A program made the translations under genes and the position numbers. DNA of 41,458 bases from a virus. Below the pieces are notes generated by a model. The model worked only from the letters and a program-made list of their open reading frames with translations. It ran no database searches and was not told the origin of the DNA. The DNA is taken from the UHGV virus genome UHGV-0205600. One strand, 5' to 3'. Below are positions 1-41,458 of this stretch, one piece after another; the stretch's first letter is position 1, and each line of letters opens with the position of its first letter.

Positions 1-9
1 ATGTGGCTG

Positions 10-951
10 TTAAATGCCATCAACGTACGAAATGGTTTCTTTGTACACTGGCTCGACTGCACCCAGCTTGCCGTAGTAAGTGACGATCTGATACAGACCG
101 CGATACTGCACCGGCACGCTCTGAAGCGGAACCAGCGGGTAGCGGACGTATTTTTTATCGTTGGTGTACGCAACCATGCGATCCTTATTCCCCACACCAC
201 GGCCTTTCAGCCATTTAACCGCGCGGATATTCAGCGGAATACCGTTCTGGTGATAGCTGATGGTGTTGGTCTGAAGGTACGTCAACAGGGACTGGTTACC
301 CGCAGATGAAACGATGATGCTGGACAACAGAGCAAACTGCTCAGGCGGGATCAGCAAATCACGCGGAACCACAGAGTAACCGGAAGCGGCCCACGCATCA
401 GACAGCACCTGGTTAATGCTTGCGCGGATTTCGTCCGGTGTTGAGGTTGCCCACGTTTTGGCAGCGTTGTTGACAGGCACACCGTCCAGGGTAACAAGAC
501 CTTTCAGGTTTAATGCGGAATCGCCAACATACACCTGTTCATCGTTATCCATCTGCCATTTCAGTTGCATCCCGTCATACTTCTGCGTATCGATCGGGCG
601 TCCGACCTGCTGAGCAGCCTGCAATTCTATGACCGTCCAGCCAAGTTCCATCCCCCACAGGTTCAGCGGGTTACCGGATTTGCCGATATCCACGTTTACG
701 CCAGCAATAGCGGTTGAGTCTTTGCCTACCCAGTTTTTGCCATTCGGATTTGCACCAGTACCCGCAGCGGCGAAGCTGGTATTCGTCCAGCTGGAAATGT
801 CATCTGCGATGGAGACATCTTCACGCAGTTGGATATCGCGGGTCCAGGTGTACCCCACCAGTGGCAGGTTCAGCGTCTGGTCGAGTCGCTCCAGCTCCCC
901 GATGAGAAAGGCACCAGAGCTGTCAACGGTTGCCTGATCAAAAGTAATCAT
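10..951 (-). CDS. major capsid protein
   Basis: 313-aa ORF, last gene of the head operon downstream of portal, F-like and scaffold genes; assignment by position and size. Confidence 0.6.
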   Translation of the reverse strand: MITFDQATVDSSGAFLIGELERLDQTLNLPLVGYTWTRDIQLREDVSIADDISSWTNTSFAAAGTGANPNGKNWVGKDSTAIAGVNVDIGKSGNPLNLWGMELGWTVIELQAAQQVGRPIDTQKYDGMQLKWQMDNDEQVYVGDSALNLKGLVTLDGVPVNNAAKTWATSTPDEIRASINQVLSDAWAASGYSVVPRDLLIPPEQFALLSSIIVSSAGNQSLLTYLQTNTISYHQNGIPLNIRAVKWLKGRGVGNKDRMVAYTNDKKYVRYPLVPLQSVPVQYRGLYQIVTYYGKLGAVEPVYKETISYVDGI

Positions 952-962
952 TCGTCTGTTCC

Positions 963-1469
963 TTAAATCTTCCAGGAAATTTCTGCATTGCCGTCAGCAT
1001 CACCGGCACCTGTGAATTCAGCGTTGGTCAGCACCACGTTTTTGCCACTGACTGACGTGGCCATGAATCCACCCAGCGGCACTTTGATGGATTCATCAGT
1101 GGAGACGACAACGTATACCGGGTCGCCTTTTTTGATGGTGCTGGCATCAAAATCAGAACCGAGATTAACGGTCACGTAGCCACGCTTCATTGCGTCGCCC
1201 GGGAAGTTCTTGCCACTCCCCACCTGGCGAACCATGTCCGGCTGCGAAGTGGTCGGATAAGGGCGCACATAGATCCCCTTCACCTTGTCTGCGGTATCAC
1301 CATCTGCCAGCGGCACGAAAAAACCGTCATCATCGTATTTACCAGCCAGCCCATAGGCAGCAAAGGCGTTATCGGATTTAAGGACCACCGGTTCGACGGT
1401 TAAGTCCTGCGGGCGAGAGACAGCCCCGGCAATGCCAACAGGCATCCGGTACAGAAATACATTATTCAT
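963..1469 (-). CDS. head protein, possibly decoration or scaffold-associated
   Basis: 168-aa ORF between the putative scaffold/protease and capsid genes; assignment by position only. Confidence 0.4.
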   Translation of the reverse strand: MNNVFLYRMPVGIAGAVSRPQDLTVEPVVLKSDNAFAAYGLAGKYDDDGFFVPLADGDTADKVKGIYVRPYPTTSQPDMVRQVGSGKNFPGDAMKRGYVTVNLGSDFDASTIKKGDPVYVVVSTDESIKVPLGGFMATSVSGKNVVLTNAEFTGAGDADGNAEISWKI

Positions 1470-1472
1470 TTT

Positions 1473-2693
1473 TTACCCTTTACGGTTTGCCCAGAATTCA
1501 GCGTTTTGTTTGTTCAGGGAAGCGATACTGGTCATGCCCATATTTGGGCGCTGTGCATCGCCGGTGGTGGCGCGGGTGTTTCGCCCTTTGGCAATCTCAG
1601 ACACGGCATTAAACGCCATGTCGACTGATTGTTTCGGCAATTTGCGGATATCCGCATCACCGACTATCTGGCGAACCAGCGTTTTGTCAGCAGAAGCCAG
1701 AACCTCACGTTTGAACGCGGTCGGTTTCATCTTACGGCTCAGATCAATACCCGGAACGATAACTTCGGCACGCCAGGCTGAGTCACCAGTAATCGTGGTT
1801 TCCTCTTCATCGTCCTCGCCGTCACCGGTCGGATTATCGTCAGGCTTATTGTCGTTATCGCCCGTCGCATTTCCTTCCAGCTTAGCCAGCAGGGCTTTCA
1901 GTAATGTTTTGAGGTCATCATCACTGTCGCCCGTTGGACCTCCGCCCATCTCTGGTGCTTTGTCCGGTAGCGGTTGCTGTGGGGACAGGTTGATGTTGAG
2001 ATTAACGCCCTGCGGCAAATCCCCCTCATCTCCTGTAACCGATGCGGGAGCCGACTCCACCAGTTCGTTCATGGTGTCAGCGTCACCCGTTTTGATGGCC
2101 GTGCGCATGCGGGTCCACCAGCTTTTCTTTTGATTTGCCATTGTGTCTCTGTCTCCAATTGCACAACGATTTCCGGCTCTGCCTTTAGGGACAAGAGCCA
2201 CATGGTTTCCGGTAATATCAACCTGCTCAGCCTTACCCGGCTCAGTCTGCTTATATTCCGCGTCATAGCCACACGACACTTCGCGCAGGCCATCTTCGAT
2301 CAGCTGAATGGCGTTTTCGTCTTTGACGATAAGGTCAGCCAGCATCAAATCAGACTGCACACCCGTCCCGCGCCGGACATTCTGAAGATGCCCGACCGCG
2401 AGCTCTTTCCAGTTCTCTGGATTCACCAGCCGCACATCCCCGTTTTCATCCTCGGGATGCAACACCGTGATACTCATTCCTTCGAATGAGGCAAGCGTGG
2501 CGGGATGGAATACCTGCTCAGGAGAACGCGTGACGACTATTTCACCGAACTTATCGGGTTTCAGTTTTGGCAGGTCATCAGCACCATAGAGCTGCTTACC
2601 TGTTCGTCCTATCGGCACGTCTTTGCACAGCAACGAGCCGTCAGCCAGCTGATAGCGGGTTTCCCCCAGCCGGGTATTGAAAAAATATTTCAT
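1473..2693 (-). CDS. putative prohead protease/scaffold protein
   Basis: 406-aa ORF with a central acidic Asp/Glu/Gly-rich linker, located between the head morphogenesis and capsid genes. Confidence 0.5.
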   Translation of the reverse strand: MKYFFNTRLGETRYQLADGSLLCKDVPIGRTGKQLYGADDLPKLKPDKFGEIVVTRSPEQVFHPATLASFEGMSITVLHPEDENGDVRLVNPENWKELAVGHLQNVRRGTGVQSDLMLADLIVKDENAIQLIEDGLREVSCGYDAEYKQTEPGKAEQVDITGNHVALVPKGRAGNRCAIGDRDTMANQKKSWWTRMRTAIKTGDADTMNELVESAPASVTGDEGDLPQGVNLNINLSPQQPLPDKAPEMGGGPTGDSDDDLKTLLKALLAKLEGNATGDNDNKPDDNPTGDGEDDEEETTITGDSAWRAEVIVPGIDLSRKMKPTAFKREVLASADKTLVRQIVGDADIRKLPKQSVDMAFNAVSEIAKGRNTRATTGDAQRPNMGMTSIASLNKQNAEFWANRKG

Positions 2694-2707
2694 GTGTTAC
2701 CTGCGAT

Positions 2708-3442
2708 TCAGGCGGGATAAGAATGGGAGGTGGGAAAAACGATTTCTTTATAACAGCGACAATTCGGGAGCTCGCCAGCGTGACCGGTCATGCCATCAAG
2801 CGTTGGAGGTTTGCCCCATTCGACAAATTTACCTTCCATTTCCCGATGAGAATGCCTGACGTCACCATCTTCGGCTGTACGCCAGATATAACCATTCGAA
2901 CCAATTGCCAGCGCACGCGCCTGATCCAGCGCGCCGGTTGCACGTCCAAGTTCAGTACGGGCAATCAGGTCAGCTCTGGACTTTGCTATATCACCCGATG
3001 CGGCTATTTCTTTAGCAAAATGTTCCGCTCTCCCACCGGTCACAACAGCTTCAATCGCCCGATTCTGGATGTCGTACACCCTGTCAGCCGCCTCGAGGGG
3101 TAGCGATTTAATGTACTTAACCTGTTCAGCAACGATGGATTTCATCACCTGCCCTGGCGGGGCACTGTTTACCAGATTGCGTAGCTCACGGCTGATGGTT
3201 TTGCTGTGTTTACGCCACTGCTCATCATTCTTGCGCACAATATCGGCAGTAAAGTTTTCCGCGACCTTTGTCGCCCAGGGGGTGATGATTTCACTGTAGC
3301 GTTCCAGCGCCTCAATAATTTCCGTGATACTGTCATTTGAACCATCGTAGTGACCATTTACGATGTCCCCTACCGCCCGCGCTATCCTGCGTAGGCTGGT
3401 TCGATACCGGATTTCCGCCTGACGGTTCCTGCGGTTCGTCAT
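2708..3442 (-). CDS. head morphogenesis protein (Mu F / SPP1 gp7-like)
   Basis: Immediately downstream of portal; C-terminal GELPNCRCY-type motif typical of the F-like family; the longest ORF (to 3481) overlaps the portal end, so the start is probably an internal Met. Confidence 0.65.
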   Translation of the reverse strand: MTNRRNRQAEIRYRTSLRRIARAVGDIVNGHYDGSNDSITEIIEALERYSEIITPWATKVAENFTADIVRKNDEQWRKHSKTISRELRNLVNSAPPGQVMKSIVAEQVKYIKSLPLEAADRVYDIQNRAIEAVVTGGRAEHFAKEIAASGDIAKSRADLIARTELGRATGALDQARALAIGSNGYIWRTAEDGDVRHSHREMEGKFVEWGKPPTLDGMTGHAGELPNCRCYKEIVFPTSHSYPA

Positions 3443-4799
3443 CAGGTTCGCCGATGCCGGGCGGCGCTTCATCTTCGGCATTCTCGATGTCCTCGTCGGT
3501 AATGGATGCCCCGATGCCGGTTACGTCAGAATTTTCTCGCAAATCAGTCATAGCGGCTTTCAGTGTCATCAGACCATCACCCAGCGCTGTACTGATTGCG
3601 TTGGTAGTGTTTAACGCCACCGTTGAGCGATCGACATCAGACATTTGCCAGAGCGGGTTAAACTCAAACGTGAAATCGTCCGGCAGCGGCTTGCCAAGCT
3701 CCGAACGATGCATGATGTCCAGTATCCGCCGCACCGGAAGACGTAAACGCCTCTCCTGCAACGAGCTTACCCGGTCGTAATAGTTGGCAAGGTCTGCATC
3801 GCCGGTAGAAAATCCCTTCGGGGACTGTCCGAACAACCGCACCAGTGGGATACCAACAGCGCCACTAATCTGTTCTGCAAACTGTGAAAGGATGTCATCC
3901 AGACCACTGAAGCTGTACTGATGGGTTTCAAACTTATCCCGCGAGTCCATGAGAGTCATGCCTTCATTGCTCTGGAACTGTCGAATCAGGTCAATATTCT
4001 TCAGCAACGCTTCATACGCAGGACCACCAAGTGCGATAAGCTCGCGTAGCTTCTCCACGCTGTAGGTACGCAAATGCGCTTTGTAGACCAGCTGCGCCGC
4101 GCCGACAGTAGCGCTGTCGAACGCGGTAAGACGATCCCAGATACGCTCTACAACCGACATTCCCCATTCGTTCTCGGTCATCTTCTGCTGAAATGGCAGC
4201 GTGACGCCATCAAAGCGAATCAGTCGACTGTGATGAATGCGCCAGGCAGGAATTCCCGTTGCTGTGGTCACCACATCGTAAAACTCAGGTTTACCCAGGT
4301 CCGGCCCCATATCTTTAATGCGGCGGGTCAGTACCGGGTCAATCATCCAGCGGTCGAGCGGGAGAATCCCCTTAAACTTGCCCTTACCGATGGTTTCGGG
4401 TCGCAGCGGGGTCATTGGTGCCTGCCCCTCAATCATGATGAAACCCACCGCGCCGCCGTAGAGGCGCGACCATTTCAGCACGTCATTCAGCGCATCCCAG
4501 ATTTGCAACTCATCCAGTTGTGATTCGAGAATGCCGCGATCTTTTGCATCAATTTCCGAAGTGATGCGAATGCCTTTGCGGGTCATATCATCCGGGATAG
4601 CATCGACCGCTTCGCCGATGATCCAGGACGAACGATAGGACCATTCCACCAGCATGCGGTTACGACTGGTGAAATTAGCCCGGTAGGTGGATGCTGAGTG
4701 CTGGTTAGTTGTCTGCATCCCTACGCGGGCAATAAAATTCTCATAACCATCAGCTGTGGCCTGCGCAGTTCGCCGCAGGGCTTGTTTGTTTCGTGCCAT
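3333..4799 (-). CDS. portal protein
   Basis: 488-aa ORF directly downstream of the large terminase with a 1-nt overlap and an acidic C-terminus; position and size typical of a portal. Confidence 0.7.
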   Translation of the reverse strand: MARNKQALRRTAQATADGYENFIARVGMQTTNQHSASTYRANFTSRNRMLVEWSYRSSWIIGEAVDAIPDDMTRKGIRITSEIDAKDRGILESQLDELQIWDALNDVLKWSRLYGGAVGFIMIEGQAPMTPLRPETIGKGKFKGILPLDRWMIDPVLTRRIKDMGPDLGKPEFYDVVTTATGIPAWRIHHSRLIRFDGVTLPFQQKMTENEWGMSVVERIWDRLTAFDSATVGAAQLVYKAHLRTYSVEKLRELIALGGPAYEALLKNIDLIRQFQSNEGMTLMDSRDKFETHQYSFSGLDDILSQFAEQISGAVGIPLVRLFGQSPKGFSTGDADLANYYDRVSSLQERRLRLPVRRILDIMHRSELGKPLPDDFTFEFNPLWQMSDVDRSTVALNTTNAISTALGDGLMTLKAAMTDLRENSDVTGIGASITDEDIENAEDEAPPGIGEPDDEPQEPSGGNPVSNQPTQDSAGGRGHRKWSLRWFK

Positions 4800-6421
4800 C
4801 AGGCCTGTCTCCCTAGCAGCTCCCAGATGTTCAGGGCTGAATTCATTGGGGCATAGTTGATCATCACCGAGTCGGCAAGGTTTGGCGATCGGGTTCCATC
4901 AGGCTGTTTATCAATAACTATTTTTCCCACACCATTAATGGAATAGGTCGGCTGCGAAAGCTCGATGATGAGTTTATCTTTGAGTGCCATGCTACTGCTG
5001 ATTGAGATGATTTCGTCCGGGTTGTAAGCCATACCTTCAACCACGGCGCGCCAGGTATTCTGAAAAAGTTTACGTAACCGCCACCAGCTCTGGGCTTTGG
5101 CGTTAGCGAAGAAGTCCTTGTTCAGACGTGCGGCTTGCCCGTTGTCCCCGCGAACAGCTTCATCATCCGGATCAAATACCGCGCCACTACCTCGAAACGG
5201 TGTGGCAAGTATTGACGGTCGACGCGCAGCGTTACGCAGTTCGTTGATAGCGCGTGCATCGCCGCGAACGCCAGCGCCCAGCCCGTCCTCGTCAAAGCGA
5301 AACTCTTCGAGGTTGTCCTGTTCGCAAAAGCCGAAAACCTTCTCGACGGACTGATAAATGTCGCTGCCCACACCGGACCATTCCCGCACATTTTCCAGGA
5401 GGAAGCCATGACGGGTGGAAAAGGCATTTTTGTCCCTGCCTTCATCAGCGACATCCATCGCGCCAAGTCGTTTGCCTGTTGGCTGGATACCCAGTCTGAT
5501 ATGCGCATCAACGGCAGCCTGTACCCATTCGGATGGAATCAGGACGCCTTCCGCTGATGCGCTGTAGTTCAGATCAAGTTCCTGTGCCACCACCACCGGA
5601 TTATCGATTTTCTCGCATTCCCTGCGATACCACTCTTCATCCTTGCGAGGATCATCCCGCCAGTGGAATGTGAATACCGGTATCTTCCCGCCATGACGCT
5701 TCTGAGCGAACGGGTTAGCCATGCCGTTAACTGAACTCAGGTCGATACGGCAACGCGTCGTTTGTGACAACGCCGCATCAATCAGCAGAGGACGCTGAAG
5801 GAATGCAGCCTCATCAACCAGATAAAGCGTGGCACGGTCACCACGACCAATATTATCGCCAGCCTCGCCTTTGATAACGGCACCAGTTTCAGGAAACTCA
5901 ACACGCATATATGGCGCGTGCTTCTTCTCGCTCCACGAACCGCGAAACTCTACAGGTAGTGTTTCCACGAACTTGCGCGCCTTCCAGAACAATGCTTTCG
6001 GGTCACCGGTGCTGTCGACGTATTCCTCTTTACGGGAGCCGAAACCGATAACCATTTCTTTGTTGAAGAGACAAAGCGAGCAGGCCAGTCCGATCGCGGT
6101 CCAACTGAGCCCCATTTCACGGGATTTTTCGGTAATACCATTCTCCCTATTGCCCCAGCGTTCCATAATCCAGTGGATCCACTCCTCCTGCTTAGGGAAG
6201 AGTAAAAACGGAATGGTCACCGGCAGGCCATAATCAATATTACGCGGGTCCGTTGTCATGCCCCAGTCGATGATGAACTGAGCCGGGTTGGTTCGGTAAA
6301 ACTGTTTTAGTGCTGGCAATATTTCAGGGTTCTGGCGAATGCGCTGTAAGCGTTCCATCCGCCATTCAAAAACCATCTGGTAATCAGGATTTTTAAAATC
6401 GAAGGGGAATGGTAACGGCAT
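4799..6421 (-). CDS. terminase large subunit
   Basis: 540-aa ORF following the small terminase; N-terminal ATPase-like and C-terminal nuclease-like layout; canonical terS-terL-portal order. Confidence 0.85.
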
Positions 6422-6423
6422 AC

Positions 6424-6975
6424 TTAGCCCATCATTTTTCTATACGCCTCTGCAGCCTGCTCCGGCGTTAAGTTGGTAATTTCTGTTCTGACTGGTCCTC
6501 CATCAGCGCCAGTCACTTCATTTTTGACGTTGTCTTTAAACGCCTGAACAGAAACATGACGCCCAAGCAACTCAAGGTTTTTAACCTTATCAGGCCATTT
6601 GATTTTCTTCAGAAGTGCGGCGCTATCTGCGGATACCATCTCCATGACATCCATTCCTGATAGCGTTGTGCGCCATACCTTAGGCCAGTCTTTAATGGGT
6701 TTTAGCTCACCGTTTTGCAGGAGAATGTCAAGCACATCCATCTGGTCGATTTCAATAAGGCGATTAAGCACATATTCTGCATTAATACCAACAAGATCAT
6801 TGCGTTGCGCTTTCAGTTCGGCGATTCTTAACTTGATGTCAGGTTTTGACAGGTTTTCGGATGCGGTACGGTTAGCTGTCTTAGCGCTGTACCCCGCCCG
6901 AATAGCCGCTTGCGTGGCGTTTAAATCGATGAGGTACTCGCGACAGAACATTTCTTGTTTGTCGGTGAGTGCCAT
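6424..6975 (-). CDS. terminase small subunit
   Basis: 183-aa ORF with N-terminal [15 protein letters not shown]...[12 protein letters not shown] helix-turn-helix typical of small terminases; directly upstream of terL. Confidence 0.75.
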
Positions 6976-10781: not shown

Positions 10782-11327
10782 CTATGCTACATGTTTAATT
10801 TTCTCTACACGTTTCCGGTTTTTAAACGCACTATCCAGAGCCGGGTAAATCATAAACAACGAGGCATTGAGGATTTCGTCAACTTCCCGTCGACAGGTTG
10901 CGAGCGATGGTTTTTGAATGCGCCCGCCGCCCCGGCATAACATCTTGCGAGGTCTTGCGACGCGATGATAGTAAGATGCAATGGCGTGCTTGGAAGAGCC
11001 GTGGGCGTAGTAGCTGAGGAGGATGCCAAAGGCTTTCTTGTCAATGTACATGACGGAATCGACGACCTGAGAAATCAACATTCCATCATCATCATTACAC
11101 ATTGGCCTTGTCATAACTCTTCCCGGCTCTACGCTCTCCATGAACTTAGCTATTACGCTGCTCATGCGCTTTTCCAGACGACCTGAATAAACCCATGCGC
11201 CCCACAGTTCAAGCCAGCCATTCAGCCACTCGTGCTGTTCTTTGGTGAGGTTTAGTTCTCTTATGCCCATGCGCCTTCTCCCTTGTGATCTGGAATGGTT
11301 TTTACTGAGAACGTCATGCGGCCTCAC
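10782..11327 (-). CDS. Q: late antiterminator Q (Q-like family)
   Basis: WGAW and CNDDDGMLI motifs typical of the QuuD/82-type Q family; sits between nin region and lysis genes; true start may be the internal MGIRE Met near 11270. Confidence 0.7.
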
Positions 11328-32416: not shown

Positions 32417-32557
32417 TTGATAGGCTCCAATAATTTAAAACACTTGCTTTGATATTTTTGTTAAGAGCAATCAAACTATATGTTCGGATAGTGGTTGGTT
32501 TTATTAACCGTTTTCCGCTTATCAATCACAGCAATTAAATCTTTACAAGGATTAGAT

Positions 32558-32779
32558 ATGAGCACTGACTCGCAAACAACCGATATTCAGGTCAAATGCC
32601 TGCATTGTGGAGCATGGTTTCCTTCAGCTATATGGATTGGGGATCGTGAGTCCCTTCAGTCTGGAGTTTTGTTTGGGAACAAGCAACAATGCCCGAAATG
32701 TCATAAAATGACTGATTGTAATAAAGAAAATTTCAAAGCTAGATTTAAGGATGGCGGATTTATAGGTACGAAAGTCTAA
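32558..32779 (+). CDS. small zinc-ribbon protein (about 73 aa)
   Basis: Start at MSTDSQTTDIQVKCLHCGAW...; two CxxC pairs (CLHCG, CPKCH); opposite strand to the surrounding tail operon. Confidence 0.45.
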   Translation: MSTDSQTTDIQVKCLHCGAWFPSAIWIGDRESLQSGVLFGNKQQCPKCHKMTDCNKENFKARFKDGGFIGTKV

Positions 32780-32796
32780 ATAACATCCCCAAAAAA

Positions 32797-32818
32797 AGCC
32801 TCACGGCGATATGAGGCT
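32797..32818. terminator. bidirectional rho-independent terminator
   Basis: Stem agcctca / tgaggct with 8-nt loop, flanked by an A-run upstream and a T-run downstream; sits between two convergent small genes. Confidence 0.6.
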
Positions 32819-32841
32819 TTTTCAATGAATACTAAAAATGT

Positions 32842-33189
32842 TCAATCAGCAATTTTCTTACAAGGGTAAGATCCAATGATTTTCGGAGCATCCATGCTGT
32901 GTTGCAGCAGTTGGACGTTCAGGAAGGCTTTTCCGTTACGCTTCACAAACTCAAAGCCGTAATTGTTGCCATCGCGGGAAGGCATCAGGCCCATGTCGGT
33001 TTTAACGTTGTCCCAGTCATCTTTCTGACCAAGAAACTTAATTTTCTGAGATGTTACCTGTTCGCCGTTGATTTTCGTCCACCCGTTATCAGATGCATGA
33101 AGTCGGTATCCCCCGCATTGCAAATCAGCGAAAGCCGATGAGCAGGAAAACAGTAACGAAATTGTCAGAACTAACTTCATACGCTTCAT
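32842..33189 (-). CDS. secreted small protein (about 115 aa)
   Basis: Start at MKRMKLVLTISLLFSCSSAFA, a Sec signal peptide; Cys-containing mature region; inserted between baseplate genes. Confidence 0.5.
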   Translation of the reverse strand: MKRMKLVLTISLLFSCSSAFADLQCGGYRLHASDNGWTKINGEQVTSQKIKFLGQKDDWDNVKTDMGLMPSRDGNNYGFEFVKRNGKAFLNVQLLQHSMDAPKIIGSYPCKKIAD

Positions 33190-34253
33190 GAATAAATCCT
33201 TTGCTGCGCTGAGGACGAAAGTAAATCCGCCGCGCCACGCGCTTCGCACATCATGTCCATGTACCACGCCTGGCCCCTTGTGTCACCAGTGTACATAATC
33301 CCGCGCACAATATAAACGCCATCCGTTGCGATGCTGGCAGGCTGCGATGTGGTGCCGCTGAGCGTGATATTTCCGTCCGTGTTCTGGTCGGTGATCTGAC
33401 CACCAGCCATCGCAATATCGTTGTTCGACAACGCGGTACGATAGACGGAAGCCTGATCCAGCTGAATGAGCCCGTTAACCCGGATGTTCGGATTAATAAG
33501 CGCGCGGACGTTTACGCCGTTACCGATAGTCTGCTGCGGCATTCCAATAAGCCCGGTAGCGCTGTTGAGCACAATCGCTTCGTGAACATATTCGTTATTC
33601 GCCACCATCTGGCGCTGACCGTCCACGAATTGCCATGTTGCGCCACATTGTCCGGCTACGTTATCCATTAGATGCCGCGTCATGCCAAAGAGTACCCGCC
33701 CCCGGGGGAATACAGTAGCAGGCATTTCAGGCGTCAGGCCTTCGGTCGCGCCTTTGGCTTCGAAGTCTTTCATCAGCGCACGGTTCACATCAGCGACCGT
33801 GTAACCGGCAGCCAGCGTCTGTGAGGTTATACTGGTAGCAAAAGCCAGATCAGTATCTGCTGCCTGAATCAGGACGTAGGTATCAACCGGACTGTCTTTT
33901 CCTGTGACCGAGTAGCGAATTTCACCGCTGAAAATCAGTCCGTAGTTGCGGCCATCACTCTGGCCCACGTCCGCCGCGTCAACTTCCCGCACTGTCCCGA
34001 CGTCGCTTGCCGACACCTCCGGCGCGATACCGTCGTAACCCGCAATCAGACGCACTTTCGAAAACTCCTGTCCGGTGATTCGGTTCACAGTATCTGCCGA
34101 GAGGTTATAAATTTTGATAGTCCCTACCCGGGATGCACTGCTGATGTTGAACCAGTCGATCGTAAAGGTAACTTTAAAATCACTTAGCTCAATTCCCTGA
34201 CCGTTCTCGTCCACAAGCTGCAGCTCGAAATGTCTCATCCAGTTCTGTGACAT
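33186..34253 (-). CDS. baseplate hub protein (Mu gp44 P-like position)
   Basis: 355-aa ORF downstream of tape-measure-associated genes; assignment by size and synteny. Confidence 0.5.
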   Translation of the reverse strand: MSQNWMRHFELQLVDENGQGIELSDFKVTFTIDWFNISSASRVGTIKIYNLSADTVNRITGQEFSKVRLIAGYDGIAPEVSASDVGTVREVDAADVGQSDGRNYGLIFSGEIRYSVTGKDSPVDTYVLIQAADTDLAFATSITSQTLAAGYTVADVNRALMKDFEAKGATEGLTPEMPATVFPRGRVLFGMTRHLMDNVAGQCGATWQFVDGQRQMVANNEYVHEAIVLNSATGLIGMPQQTIGNGVNVRALINPNIRVNGLIQLDQASVYRTALSNNDIAMAGGQITDQNTDGNITLSGTTSQPASIATDGVYIVRGIMYTGDTRGQAWYMDMMCEARGAADLLSSSAQQRIYS

Positions 34254-34558: not shown

Positions 34559-35145
34559 TAGCCGCCCCCCAGTAATGACGCCACGTTACCCGTGATGCTT
34601 TTCAGCAGTGAAGTATCTGGAGGCTTTGTGGTTTTGTTGCCGCTATTCTGTACCGCCGACGTGCTGGCCCCTTCCTTCATGTTGGTTTTATCCGCGACGG
34701 TAATCTGCTGTGTCCGGGAGATAAGGACCTCCCTCAGGGTGAGGACGGCGGACAGGACGTTTTCGGTTGTCTTGTCCGTCGTCACTTCCAGCGCCCGGAT
34801 CAACATGTTGCTGTACAGTCGTTTACCGGTTACCACATCGAAGGGGATACGGCTTTCCTGCAGATCCAGTAGCTCCTGATACGTCTGCTGAGGACTCAGG
34901 CCGAGCAGGCTGGTAGCCGTCAGATTACTGGCAAAATCCAGCAATGCGCCGTCACCGGCGAAACCAACCTCCATCACCACTTCTGACGGTTTTTTATAGG
35001 CATGATCAGCGACAGCGGCCCCAACCTCTACCGGATGCTCTGTTATTTCAAGCATATCTGTATGCTTCTCTGAAATAACAACACTGGGAACAATCATTCC
35101 TATTTTTCTGCTCTGCTGATGAAAAAGTGTAGAGAGAATATCCAC
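34558..35145 (-). CDS. tail protein (DNA-circulation-like position after tape measure)
   Basis: 195-aa ORF immediately downstream of the tape measure gene; assignment by synteny. Confidence 0.4.
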   Translation of the reverse strand: MDILSTLFHQQSRKIGMIVPSVVISEKHTDMLEITEHPVEVGAAVADHAYKKPSEVVMEVGFAGDGALLDFASNLTATSLLGLSPQQTYQELLDLQESRIPFDVVTGKRLYSNMLIRALEVTTDKTTENVLSAVLTLREVLISRTQQITVADKTNMKEGASTSAVQNSGNKTTKPPDTSLLKSITGNVASLLGGG

Positions 35146-37133
35146 TAACCCACCCTCACCTGATTACTTCGCATGACCTGAGCATTTGCAGACTGTTGCC
35201 GACGTGCAACCTCATTACCGACAGCGTGCGGATCTCCGCCACCGTAAATGTGGTAGGTATTTTGCTGGTTAACCTCTGTCACTTTGCCACTAATTCCCGC
35301 CACGGCAGCCTTATTAATCAGCTCTCGAGAATAGATATTTCTTCCATTCTCATGCTGGATAATGCTGCTCATCAATGCTGACATGGTTTGCGGATCGCTC
35401 ATATTCAGGGCAGCCCGGGGATCCACTCCCAGTCGTTGCGATACAGCCCTGATATACGCAGTTGTGTTGTTATTATCAGACGCAGGTGCCCAGGTAGAGA
35501 TAATTTTCTCCACACTGTTTATTCCCCGTCCGGCGTACAGCATTAACTGACGAGCAAGAGCCCGTAATCCATCAAAGGCAGTTTCAAATCTGGCAAATCG
35601 CCCGCCCGGGCGTTCAAGAGAAGCCCCTGCCTGACCAGCAAAATTAAGGTTTCCCGGATTGTTATTCCGTTCTCCTCGTTTCGTAGCCTGTGCATGTTGT
35701 TCCGGCTCATCATCACCAAACCAGCCGCGTACCGTCCGGCCCACACTGCGGGGATCAAATCCCCAGTGCTCTTTAATCCAGTCGGCAGTACTGTTAGCGC
35801 TGTCTGTAACCATCGGCATCGCTGACGGATTTTCGCTGCCCTGATTAAGTATCTGTTTGCCGATGCTGACGGCATCAGCCCAGCGGCCATCTTTGATAGC
35901 GTTGAGCAGGTCGGCGATCATGTTCAGCATTTTGCTGAATTCGCCCATCTGGTCGATGAAGTTGCTGAAATCCCACTTCAGGGACCATGATTTGGGGTCA
36001 ATATTGAGCAGTTTCGCCAGCGCTTTCACCAGGTCGTTAACGGTCGTTTTAAGGTCACGAACCATCTTCAGCGCGGCATCAACCTCCGGTTTCCACTTGC
36101 CCCAGTCAATCAGGCTGTCGCCGCCTTCCTTCCAGGTCTGATAGTCCTCCCACAGGAGGGCAATCCCCGCCGCCAGCGCGGTAATGAGGCCAATCGGCGA
36201 CATCCAGAACGTACTGTTCAGAATGCGCAGCGCAATCGTCAGTGCGCCAAACAGCGAGATCAACTCCCGCGTTTGCTTATCCAGCGATTGCCACCAGGTG
36301 ATGAGGCCTGATGTCCCCTCAATCAGTCTGAAGAACAGCCGCCCGATAATATCCCCGAGCGCCAGAATGCCTTTTATGGCTTTCGTCAGGGTCTGCTCGA
36401 TACGCGGGAAGTTGTCCAGGATATGGCGGCGCAGTGTGTCCAGCGAACCCGCAAGCCCACCCGCAAGATTAGAGCCGATTTTGTCACGGGCCATGCCTGC
36501 CATCGCGCCAAACTCACGCAGGGAGGTCATAAATTTGTTGGAGCTTCTGGCCGCCTCGTCAGCATTGAAGCCGATAGCTTTCGCCATTGCGCTGTACTGC
36601 CCGGAGAAGCCACCCACACCGCGACGCATAGCCAACAGGGTATTTTCGTCAATGCCCAGCATCTGCGCATACTGGTTAGCACGGTAATACGGCATGTCGC
36701 TGAGCTTCTGGCCTACCCCTGTAAAAATAGCGGCCATGTCACGCATGTTACCGCTGGCATCCCGTGTCTGTACCCCCAGACGATTCAGAAATCCCTCCGC
36801 CCCGGGATTATTACGAATAAACCGGGAGAGGTTTTCCAGAGAAGATCGCGCAGCGTCCACGCTGCCGCCAACCTGCGAAACCGCATAGCCAATAGACTGA
36901 ATTCCCTGGACTGTCGCGCCGGTGCGCTGTGACGCCCAGTAAAGATTATCCAGGCCGGAGGCGATCTTAGCCGTGAAGGCCACCACGGACAGCGCCGCTC
37001 CTTCGACGGCCAGCCCCATTTTGATGACATTTGCAGTTGTACCGGCGAGGACAGAACCGAATTTTTTCGCTCCTGCATCATCCACACTGAAGCCAAGCGA
37101 GACAAGGAAATCTTTAATAGTCTCGGCGTTCAT
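35145..37133 (-). CDS. tail tape measure protein
   Basis: Longest tail ORF (about 660 aa), helical/Ala-Gly-rich with hydrophobic central segments; downstream of tube and chaperone genes. Confidence 0.65.
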   Translation of the reverse strand: MNAETIKDFLVSLGFSVDDAGAKKFGSVLAGTTANVIKMGLAVEGAALSVVAFTAKIASGLDNLYWASQRTGATVQGIQSIGYAVSQVGGSVDAARSSLENLSRFIRNNPGAEGFLNRLGVQTRDASGNMRDMAAIFTGVGQKLSDMPYYRANQYAQMLGIDENTLLAMRRGVGGFSGQYSAMAKAIGFNADEAARSSNKFMTSLREFGAMAGMARDKIGSNLAGGLAGSLDTLRRHILDNFPRIEQTLTKAIKGILALGDIIGRLFFRLIEGTSGLITWWQSLDKQTRELISLFGALTIALRILNSTFWMSPIGLITALAAGIALLWEDYQTWKEGGDSLIDWGKWKPEVDAALKMVRDLKTTVNDLVKALAKLLNIDPKSWSLKWDFSNFIDQMGEFSKMLNMIADLLNAIKDGRWADAVSIGKQILNQGSENPSAMPMVTDSANSTADWIKEHWGFDPRSVGRTVRGWFGDDEPEQHAQATKRGERNNNPGNLNFAGQAGASLERPGGRFARFETAFDGLRALARQLMLYAGRGINSVEKIISTWAPASDNNNTTAYIRAVSQRLGVDPRAALNMSDPQTMSALMSSIIQHENGRNIYSRELINKAAVAGISGKVTEVNQQNTYHIYGGGDPHAVGNEVARRQQSANAQVMRSNQVRVG

Positions 37134-37310
37134 TATCCTCTCTCCATTTCTCAATGCGCCGCTGGTTATCCGCTTTTACCGCCAGATGGTCATTCAAGAG
37201 AGCAATGTCGTACAAATCGACAGAGCCATCTTTAAGTGCTGTATAAGGAATTAACCCGGCGTCAACCGGATTGAGAAGGTAGGACAGCCCGTCCGGCAGG
37301 CTGTTAAACG

Positions 37311-41426: not shown

Positions 41427-41458
41427 CGGGTCATCCTTAATGGCCCCGCCAGGGGGCC

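Follow-up and report, generated by a model that had tools for sequence, protein, structure and literature searches.

The lambdoid 'morons', in the sense in which Juhala et al. reportedly used the word in 2000, are said to include lambda lom and bor. In P2-like prophages, two hotspots, old/tin and Z/fun, have been described in which conserved structural genes flank hypervariable cargo that includes anti-phage systems (Rousset et al., 2022, as presented in bioRxiv 10.1101/2024.10.15.618418). The membrane nuclease SNIPE (PD-lambda-1) has been characterised experimentally and cuts phage DNA during injection (PMC13190303). Here we analyse the viral genome UHGV-0205600, a stretch of 41,458 nucleotides that we call the window, and in particular the interval between its baseplate hub gene and its membrane-puncturing spike gene. 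This interval holds a conserved gene for an exported protein, here named sec, followed by a slot that in this genome carries a small zinc-ribbon gene antisense to the late operon. We conclude that the locus is a phage accessory-gene hotspot of an ordinary sort, adding a new example to a known kind, the moron or defence hotspot; no description of this hub-spike slot was found in the searchable literature. The elements concerned are these:

33186..34253, minus strand: baseplate hub gene, 355 residues (phrog_196 'baseplate hub', E value 8e-89); left conserved flank

32842..33189, minus strand: sec, conserved exported-protein gene, 115 residues, ATG at 33189 to stop at 32842 (phrog_3443, function unknown)

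32434..32841, no strand: variable cassette or hotspot slot, the true insertion, from the sec stop codon to the spike ribosome-binding site

32793..32822, both strands: bidirectional hairpin resembling an intrinsic terminator (AAAAAGCCTCA, an 8-nucleotide loop, TGAGGCTTTTT)

32558..32779, plus strand: zinc-ribbon gene, 73 residues, ATG at 32558 to stop at 32779; slot cargo, antisense to the late operon

32434..32557, plus strand: AT-rich upstream region of the zinc-ribbon gene (about 30% guanine plus cytosine, GC), showing conservation with locus L088

31664..32416, minus strand: membrane-puncturing spike gene, 250 residues (Pfam PF18352, E value 6e-44, with the GpV Apex motif); right conserved flank

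The original prediction for this DNA had described a plus-strand zinc-ribbon gene of about 73 residues antisense to the tail operon, a minus-strand protein of about 115 residues with a Sec signal peptide, and a bidirectional terminator between these convergent genes. All three are present, and non-structural DNA does lie between hub and spike. Our best explanation of the whole, to which we give slightly better than an even chance, combines a fixed hub-sec-slot-spike layout, swapped cargo, read-through of the slot under control of the antiterminator Q, a role in genetic conflict for the zinc-ribbon protein, and a role in the cell envelope for the sec product.

The slot is best seen by comparison with relatives. 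Homology with phages 689R2 and YP3 and with prophages of avian pathogenic Escherichia coli (APEC) ends on the spike side at 32429-32433 and resumes at 32844-32854, just past the sec stop codon. Across 77 loci, cited below by our own numbers (L001 and so on), the slot ranges from 4 to 2068 base pairs; together with the window these loci hold 34 unrelated cargo clusters, and four of the slots are empty. At the place where the zinc-ribbon cassette lies in the window, relatives have any of 33 other cargo types, or nothing. The slot is thus a recombination hotspot whose contents are swapped between otherwise near-identical phages. It shows what is expected of a defence hotspot, with conserved flanks around many unrelated cargo sets and with known defence systems among the cargo.

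Those systems include a 411-residue homologue of PD-Lambda-1/SNIPE with a T5orf172/MUG113 domain (PADLOC, E value 1e-84), found in the slots of L048, L049, L050 and L063, so that the slot carries validated defence cargo in relatives. Other slots hold a SocA_Panacea pair (E value 1e-20) and a YafO-toxin pair (E value 4e-17), both toxin-antitoxin-like, and there are many two-gene sets, with a member of about 130 residues that bears a RAYYxMYH motif and a weak match to HEPN_IX. Membrane proteins with DUF4282 and DUF2335 and several secreted proteins complete the cargo to which a description can be given. Antisense orientation is found in at least three other cargo types (L051, L058 and L044). As a separate observation, a cargo protein of 148-170 residues with the HEPN-like motif RNNLFHGGK (Rx4H) occurs in L001 (phage 689R2, 2378-2890), L052 and L069; it matches nothing in Pfam or PADLOC and is a candidate defence gene.

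The right border of the slot is itself conserved. Within the last 50 or so nucleotides before the spike gene, and about 10 nucleotides before its ribosome-binding site, relatives among the IMG/VR loci L013-L089 share an intrinsic terminator of the form AACCCGCC-loop-GGCGGGTTTTTT. Of the 55 distinct loci with cargo, 50 have it, as do the three empty slots that measure 60-82 nucleotides; the fourth empty slot (L047) is 4 nucleotides long. This terminator is absent from the zinc-ribbon loci (32417-32470 in the window), which have a different hairpin, between sec and the inverted zinc-ribbon gene; L070 is the only other negative in the scan. Its presence in both cargo-bearing and empty slots points to an ancestral design in the order hub, sec, cargo if any, terminator, spike.

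Unlike the cargo, sec belongs to the baseplate module. Its ATG overlaps the hub TGA in an ATGA (33186-33189), with no spacer between the reading frames. In four sequenced phages, 689R2, YP3 and SEN34 among them, and in the APEC prophages, the hub gene is immediately followed by a sec homologue, and the remote homologues, including P0133 and P0137, likewise follow a hub gene. An IMG/VR scan with sec gave 357 matches, and among the 80 best, in which locus layout was judged, the order was hub, sec, variable gap, spike wherever the flanking sequence sufficed. Since sec overlaps the hub stop codon and follows the hub in related viral loci and in remote homologues, we conclude that it accompanies the hub throughout the lineage, as a fixed part of the baseplate module and not an insertion. 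Sporadic presence, the first mark of a moron, is lacking in sec, which is in all loci. Its alleles are another matter: two, about 67% and about 92% identical to that of the window, both occur with hubs more than 97% identical, and they assort independently of the hub, the spike and the C-terminus of the tape measure. Because alleles swap in this way between near-identical hubs, untied to those of spike or tape measure, recombination around sec is evidently frequent.

The zinc-ribbon cassette, by comparison, is rare. It occurs in five of the 78 loci, counting the window (L010-L012, with an identical protein, and L088, from IMG/VR, are the others), and no more than 4 of 5426 complete E. coli genomes carry it. 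In L088 it adjoins the other sec allele, so that it has been seen with sec alleles both 99% and 67% identical to that of the window. The cassette is 0.41 kb long (32434-32841) and has 36% GC in a context of 48-54%; within it the gene has 40% and the upstream region 30%, beside 45% for sec and 52-54% for hub and spike. Sporadic presence, a predicted terminator of its own and deviant base composition all mark the cassette as moron-like, and the antisense gene, which most relatives lack, is atypical, as had been predicted. The repeats found around the cassette are short and imperfect, with none that would pass for a transposon or att-like repeat. We interpret the zinc-ribbon gene as horizontally acquired, mobile, moron-like cargo in antisense orientation.

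The gene itself is probably shorter than its mechanical open reading frame (ORF), which runs from a TTG at 32495 to 32779 on the plus strand (94 residues). The ATG at 32558 is preceded at a distance of 6 nucleotides by a Shine-Dalgarno (SD) sequence, AAGGA (32547-32551). Further upstream, a candidate promoter conserved in L088 is made up of TTGATA (32449-32454), a 17-nucleotide spacer and CAAACT (32472-32477), with 8 of 12 matches to consensus. The copy in L088 is 81% identical in nucleotides and 89% in amino acids, with proportions of synonymous and nonsynonymous differences (pS and pN) of 0.71 and 0.07 and a ratio of nonsynonymous to synonymous substitution rates (dN/dS) of about 0.03. Given this ratio and the conservation of SD and ATG in L088, the reading frame is, on comparative grounds, a real gene under strong purifying selection.

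Its product has two CxxC knuckles, C14/C17 and C45/C48, and the structural model is all-beta (predicted local distance difference test score, pLDDT, 76.8); the conserved knuckles identify it as a predicted zinc ribbon. A word-indexed protein search found only three clusters and understated the family, as was made clear when genomes, viral contigs and metagenomes were later scanned by pattern: this returned more than 80 homologues of the same length, at 36-70% GC, in Pseudomonas, Rhodanobacter, Pyrinomonadaceae, Nitrospira, Thermoanaerobaculaceae, Longimicrobiaceae and Phycisphaerae, with Acidobacteriota among the lineages, and also in soil, sediment and freshwater samples. An alignment of 16 diverse members has 14 invariant columns, among them C14, C17, C45, C48 and C54, the last within a conserved tail, TxC(N/D)KEN(F/M)...DGGFxG. 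The protein has no family in Pfam, NCBIfam, PHROG or PADLOC and no match by sequence in the PDB, and tblastn against 50,697 phage records gave no real match.

Between the two convergent genes, the hairpin at 32793-32822 has a stem that is an 11-base-pair perfect inverted repeat, followed by seven T on the minus strand and five on the plus strand. It folds with -16 kcal/mol on the plus strand and -21.5 kcal/mol on the minus strand (z = -4.5 and -3.9; none of 200 shuffles was as stable), and its stem is conserved in L088 with a changed loop. The predicted terminator would close the zinc-ribbon gene on the plus strand and sec on the minus strand. A simple terminator scan missed it; the probable cause is that the T-run is taken up into the A/T ends of the stem. 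Rfam matches at 32785-32892 to Phe_leader and to STnc230 (25.9 bits, where the gathering score is 50) were set aside as chance, only the terminator hairpin being aligned; nothing relevant was found in the literature on STnc230.

We suggest that this arrangement could work as follows. During lytic growth, Q-modified RNA polymerase would read through the hairpin (and, in relatives, through the conserved terminator), so that the spike and the downstream baseplate genes are made; such late read-through is expected because the prophage encodes a Q antiterminator. The late transcript would then run antisense across the zinc-ribbon gene and its mRNA. In the lysogen, with the late operon silent, the zinc-ribbon gene may be transcribed from a weak promoter of its own, stopping at the hairpin. 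The sec product would be made with the late genes, as an exported periplasmic beta-barrel.

What the zinc-ribbon protein does can be approached through the company it keeps. Since other cargo of the slot (a SNIPE/PD-lambda-1-like nuclease and SocA/Panacea, YafO and HEPN-like pairs) resembles defence or toxin-antitoxin systems, we tentatively suggest, as a possibility that falls somewhat short of an even chance, that the protein helps the lysogen when it is in conflict with other phages or mobile elements. This would most likely take the form of phage exclusion or defence, in which the zinc ribbon binds a protein or nucleic-acid target. Several observations weigh against this picture. Most of the slot cargo has no known function. 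A consensus scan found no sigma-70 consensus promoter for the zinc-ribbon gene, the best conserved candidate being the one given above, and no promoter for sec separate from the late operon was found. The zinc-ribbon ORF was left unannotated by the Prokaryotic Genome Annotation Pipeline (PGAP) in all three RefSeq genomes inspected. Finally, the neighbours of some homologues are housekeeping genes: tig on one side and clpP on the other, or recG just before (L100, a Pyrinomonadaceae metagenome-assembled genome, and L097); these neighbourhoods mean that the family is not confined to mobile elements and that the assignment to defence is guilt by association only.

The neighbourhoods also bear on the main rival view of the protein, as a counter-defence factor that inhibits restriction or immunity, or as a small zinc-finger regulator of transcription or proteolysis in host or phage. 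No conserved partner gene emerged from 83 loci and 212 neighbouring ORFs; nearby genes encode tail fibres, DNA methylases, Mrr and EcoRV nucleases and integrases as well as housekeeping functions, and Pfam on 145 neighbours gave only integrases, methylases and nucleases scattered amid the housekeeping functions. In favour of the rival view, several homologues adjoin DNA methylases of phages or mobile elements (L098, L109) and lie within viral contigs, one is the tig-clpP homologue, and small zinc-binding phage regulators exist, P2 Ogr and TraR/DksA among them. Pfam, however, gave no match to Ogr_Delta, TraR/DksA or any named zinc-finger family, even at an E value of 1 or below; its best matches (E values 0.03-0.2) all fall under the gathering scores, the IS1595 ribbon likewise gave none above threshold, and NCBIfam returned nothing. 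An antisense site inside the late operon would be unusual for an early anti-defence gene, and the other cargo of the slot looks like defence or toxin-antitoxin systems. We therefore think this view unlikely and retain a role in conflict, on the side of the lysogen, as the preferred one.

The second protein can be described more closely. As with the zinc-ribbon gene, the mechanical ORF of sec (32842-33267, minus strand, GTG start, 141 residues) is likely longer than the real gene. The N-terminus reads MKRMK-LVLTISLLFSCSS-AFA/DL, so that the protein begins MKRMKLVLTISLLFSCSSAFA/DLQC, the slash marking the predicted cleavage point. The predicted signal peptide covers approximately residues 1-21 (33127-33189) and has a basic n-region, a hydrophobic h-region (maximum hydropathy over 10 residues, 2.44) and an AxA site. 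An AxA-type site stands before a conserved cysteine in 114 of 119 homologues, whereas a canonical lipobox, [LVI][ASTVI][GAS]C, occurs in one of the 119; the LFSC of the window is non-canonical and not conserved. On these counts the sec product is predicted to be a Sec-exported substrate of signal peptidase I and not generally a lipoprotein, and the lipoprotein option that had been entertained for it is ruled out. C25 and C110 are invariant. The two halves of the mature part have pN/pS of 0.32 and 0.13, in keeping with purifying selection, and the signal peptide evolves fast (0.71).

The family comprises 379 clusters at 90% identity and is narrow, with 67 representatives at 50% identity in a profile search of 1.84 billion representatives. 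Among sequenced phages it occurs in 20 records, all from temperate phages of Enterobacterales; PGAP names one relative a 'STY1065/STY2022 family phage-derived protein', a family for which nothing relevant was found in the literature. AlphaFold models the mature part confidently as an 8-stranded up-and-down beta-barrel (pLDDT 83.5). The model had no match in BFVD at an E value of 0.001 or below, and the sequence had none in the PDB. Two variants deserve mention. P0137 and P0157 (loci L091-L093) carry an extra N-terminal lipoprotein domain of about 190 residues, which contains a lipobox (LSGC, VSCA) and matches nothing in Pfam, and are still found directly after the hub. SEN34_20 (L003, NC_028699.1: 15497-15838), annotated with 77 residues, seems to lack its N-terminus in the deposited record: in tblastn the whole window protein, residues 1-115, aligns from right after the hub stop codon. 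A consensus scan for a sec promoter in the 3' end of the hub gene was negative, and divergent lineages do not share the candidate hexamers.

We consider it most likely that the sec product acts in the envelope, in entry, in exclusion or in protecting the infected cell, rather than as part of the virion. A more specific proposal is that it is a Spackle-like periplasmic immunity protein, blocking the wall-degrading or membrane-puncturing device of incoming tails of the same type and so causing superinfection exclusion or protecting the infected cell. A possible target is at hand, in that the C-terminal 200 or so residues of the tape measure are endolysin-like (PDB 7q47, 'Endolysin', E value 1e-13; 9vvp, Gp29, E value 1.5e-20). 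No co-variation of sec alleles with this lysin domain, with the hub or with the spike was found, however, nor any specific fold match. T4 Spackle is helical, unlike the modelled beta-barrel of sec. Neither Spackle nor the PliC/MliC inhibitors nor the immunity proteins of type VI secretion systems show a sequence relationship to sec, and fold similarity is generic; neither sequence nor a strong structural match places sec in the PliC/MliC family of lysozyme inhibitors. We regard this specific form as improbable.

The universal linkage to the hub, the overlap of its stop codon with the sec start codon in the window and the strong purifying selection would suit a morphogenetic or structural baseplate factor whose hydrophobic N-terminus is not an export signal. 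Such a factor would hardly be expected to keep an n-h-c signal with an AxA site in nearly every homologue while the signal sequence itself evolves fast, or two invariant cysteines, as expected of a periplasmic disulfide. Nor does the N-terminal lipoprotein extension of some homologues fit, nor the swapping of sec alleles between identical hubs, and we give the structural alternative little weight beside a role in the envelope.

The original prediction had taken both small genes as a convergent pair of morons that together form a single insertion in a contiguous Mu-type hub-spike block. There are grounds for such a reading: both genes are non-structural by sequence, both converge on one terminator, and GC falls stepwise from 54% in the hub through 45% in sec to 40% in the zinc-ribbon gene. 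Nevertheless, sec follows the hub in every relative, even where the slot is empty, the cassette pairs with two different sec alleles, and the homology breakpoints leave sec outside the variable segment. The insertion thus stands for the zinc-ribbon cassette of about 0.41 kb (32434-32841) and falls for sec, which comes after the hub in relatives. The comparison with related tail modules that had been proposed as a check bore out the variable cassette and found sec conserved as the neighbour of the hub, the outcome named in advance as telling against the idea. As a single unit, the pair is very improbable. That the zinc-ribbon ORF arose by chance in AT-rich spacer DNA, as its lack of annotation by PGAP in three genomes and of any family match might suggest, is scarcely credible given a dN/dS of about 0.03 against a copy 81% identical in nucleotides, a family of more than 80 equally long homologues that spans phyla and 36-70% GC and keeps 14 columns invariant, five of them cysteines, and a conserved SD and ATG.

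The setting of the locus is that of a complete, circularly permuted prophage genome, with a near-identical prophage in E. coli CP182374. Collinearity with CP182374 shows that the block of tail and head genes ending at 41458 goes on across the junction 41458/1 into the head genes at 1-6975. The window is a temperate E. coli myophage, SEN34/Brunovirus-like and with lambdoid regulation: it has a Nin region, a lambda-family holin and a Q antiterminator. Strain 873.10 (CP061754) has the same prophage rearranged, with the hub gene truncated beside a bet/exo recombination module. Two further genes matter to the argument:

10782..11327, minus strand: Q-family antiterminator gene (Pfam Phage_antitermQ, E value 1.1e-24; its counterpart in the near-identical prophage is named 'antiterminator Q family protein' by PGAP)

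35145-37154, minus strand: tape measure gene

The baseplate block, for a contractile tail, lies on the minus strand and comprises the tape measure, a Dit-like protein, a Pam3 gp18-like plug, the hub, the spike, a sheath initiator and a J-like wedge. Homologues of a P-like hub and then a V-like spike stand in the order expected of a Mu-type block; the nearest Pfam models are E217 gp41, Pam3 gp18 and Dit_like, not those of Mu. The hub, kept in all related loci, matches E217_GP41 of Pfam under its curated cut-off (E value 4e-5). The spike, likewise conserved in related loci, has a weak match to TIGR01644 phage_P2_V (E value 1e-7), and its SD is GGAG (complement of 32425-32428). Pfam found no SLT domain in the tape measure of the window; near-identical proteins are named 'lytic transglycosylase' by PGAP. 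When hubs that share more than 80% identity are compared, synonymous codon entropy is 0.5-0.9 over most of the gene but drops to 0.25-0.39 just upstream of sec, at hub codons of approximately 299-343 (33225-33359, minus strand). This stretch is strongly protein-constrained, and its low entropy may reflect a signal embedded in it or a recent common ancestry of sequences close to the hotspot.

The current understanding is not overturned by these observations, morons and phage defence hotspots being already well established. If our interpretation is right, the baseplate operon of this group of temperate Enterobacterales myophages contains a cargo slot with sharp borders. The left-edge marker of the slot, sec, is also found in SEN34, Mulock, GZ7 and Klebsiella prophages of the ST405-OXA48phi type. 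From the sec stop codon to the conserved terminator, the slot would be an easily searched source of candidate anti-phage genes, and a convenient one because it has 34 cargo types, a few of them recognisable defence or toxin-antitoxin modules. The analysis also draws attention to two uncharacterised proteins, a hub-linked predicted periplasmic beta-barrel and a small zinc-ribbon family missed by current annotation pipelines. The most far-reaching combination, in which the zinc-ribbon family would be a new stand-alone effector of phage-host conflict, in defence or counter-defence, sec an ancestral lineage-wide periplasmic exclusion or immunity factor and the slot an unmined source of defence genes, seems to us doubtful as a whole.

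Set beside known systems, the zinc-ribbon protein has generic zinc ribbons such as those of ribosomal protein L33 and LysW among its nearest known kinds. It is unrelated in sequence and size to SNIPE, the membrane-anchored nuclease that occupies the same slot in relatives and is encoded on the operon strand. Like the lambdoid morons, the cassette is an extra gene set in a Q-antiterminated late operon, has deviant base composition and a terminator of its own, and is found in some relatives only; unlike them, it is antisense to the operon, and its promoter is only a candidate. The sec gene resembles lambda lom in encoding an exported protein, but is fixed in its lineage and not sporadic.

The closest parallel is with the P2 hotspots as that preprint presents them. 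Both they and the slot described here have conserved structural flanks and recombination-swapped cargo that includes known anti-phage systems, and Z/fun, like the slot, is surrounded by tail genes and has a baseplate gene upstream of it. Relative to the P2 hotspots in that account, the present slot belongs to a different setting, a SEN34-like lineage with an E217/Pam3-type baseplate and lambdoid Q regulation, and to a different position, between hub and spike. It is further distinguished by a fixed gene, sec, at its left edge and by a conserved terminator as its right border.

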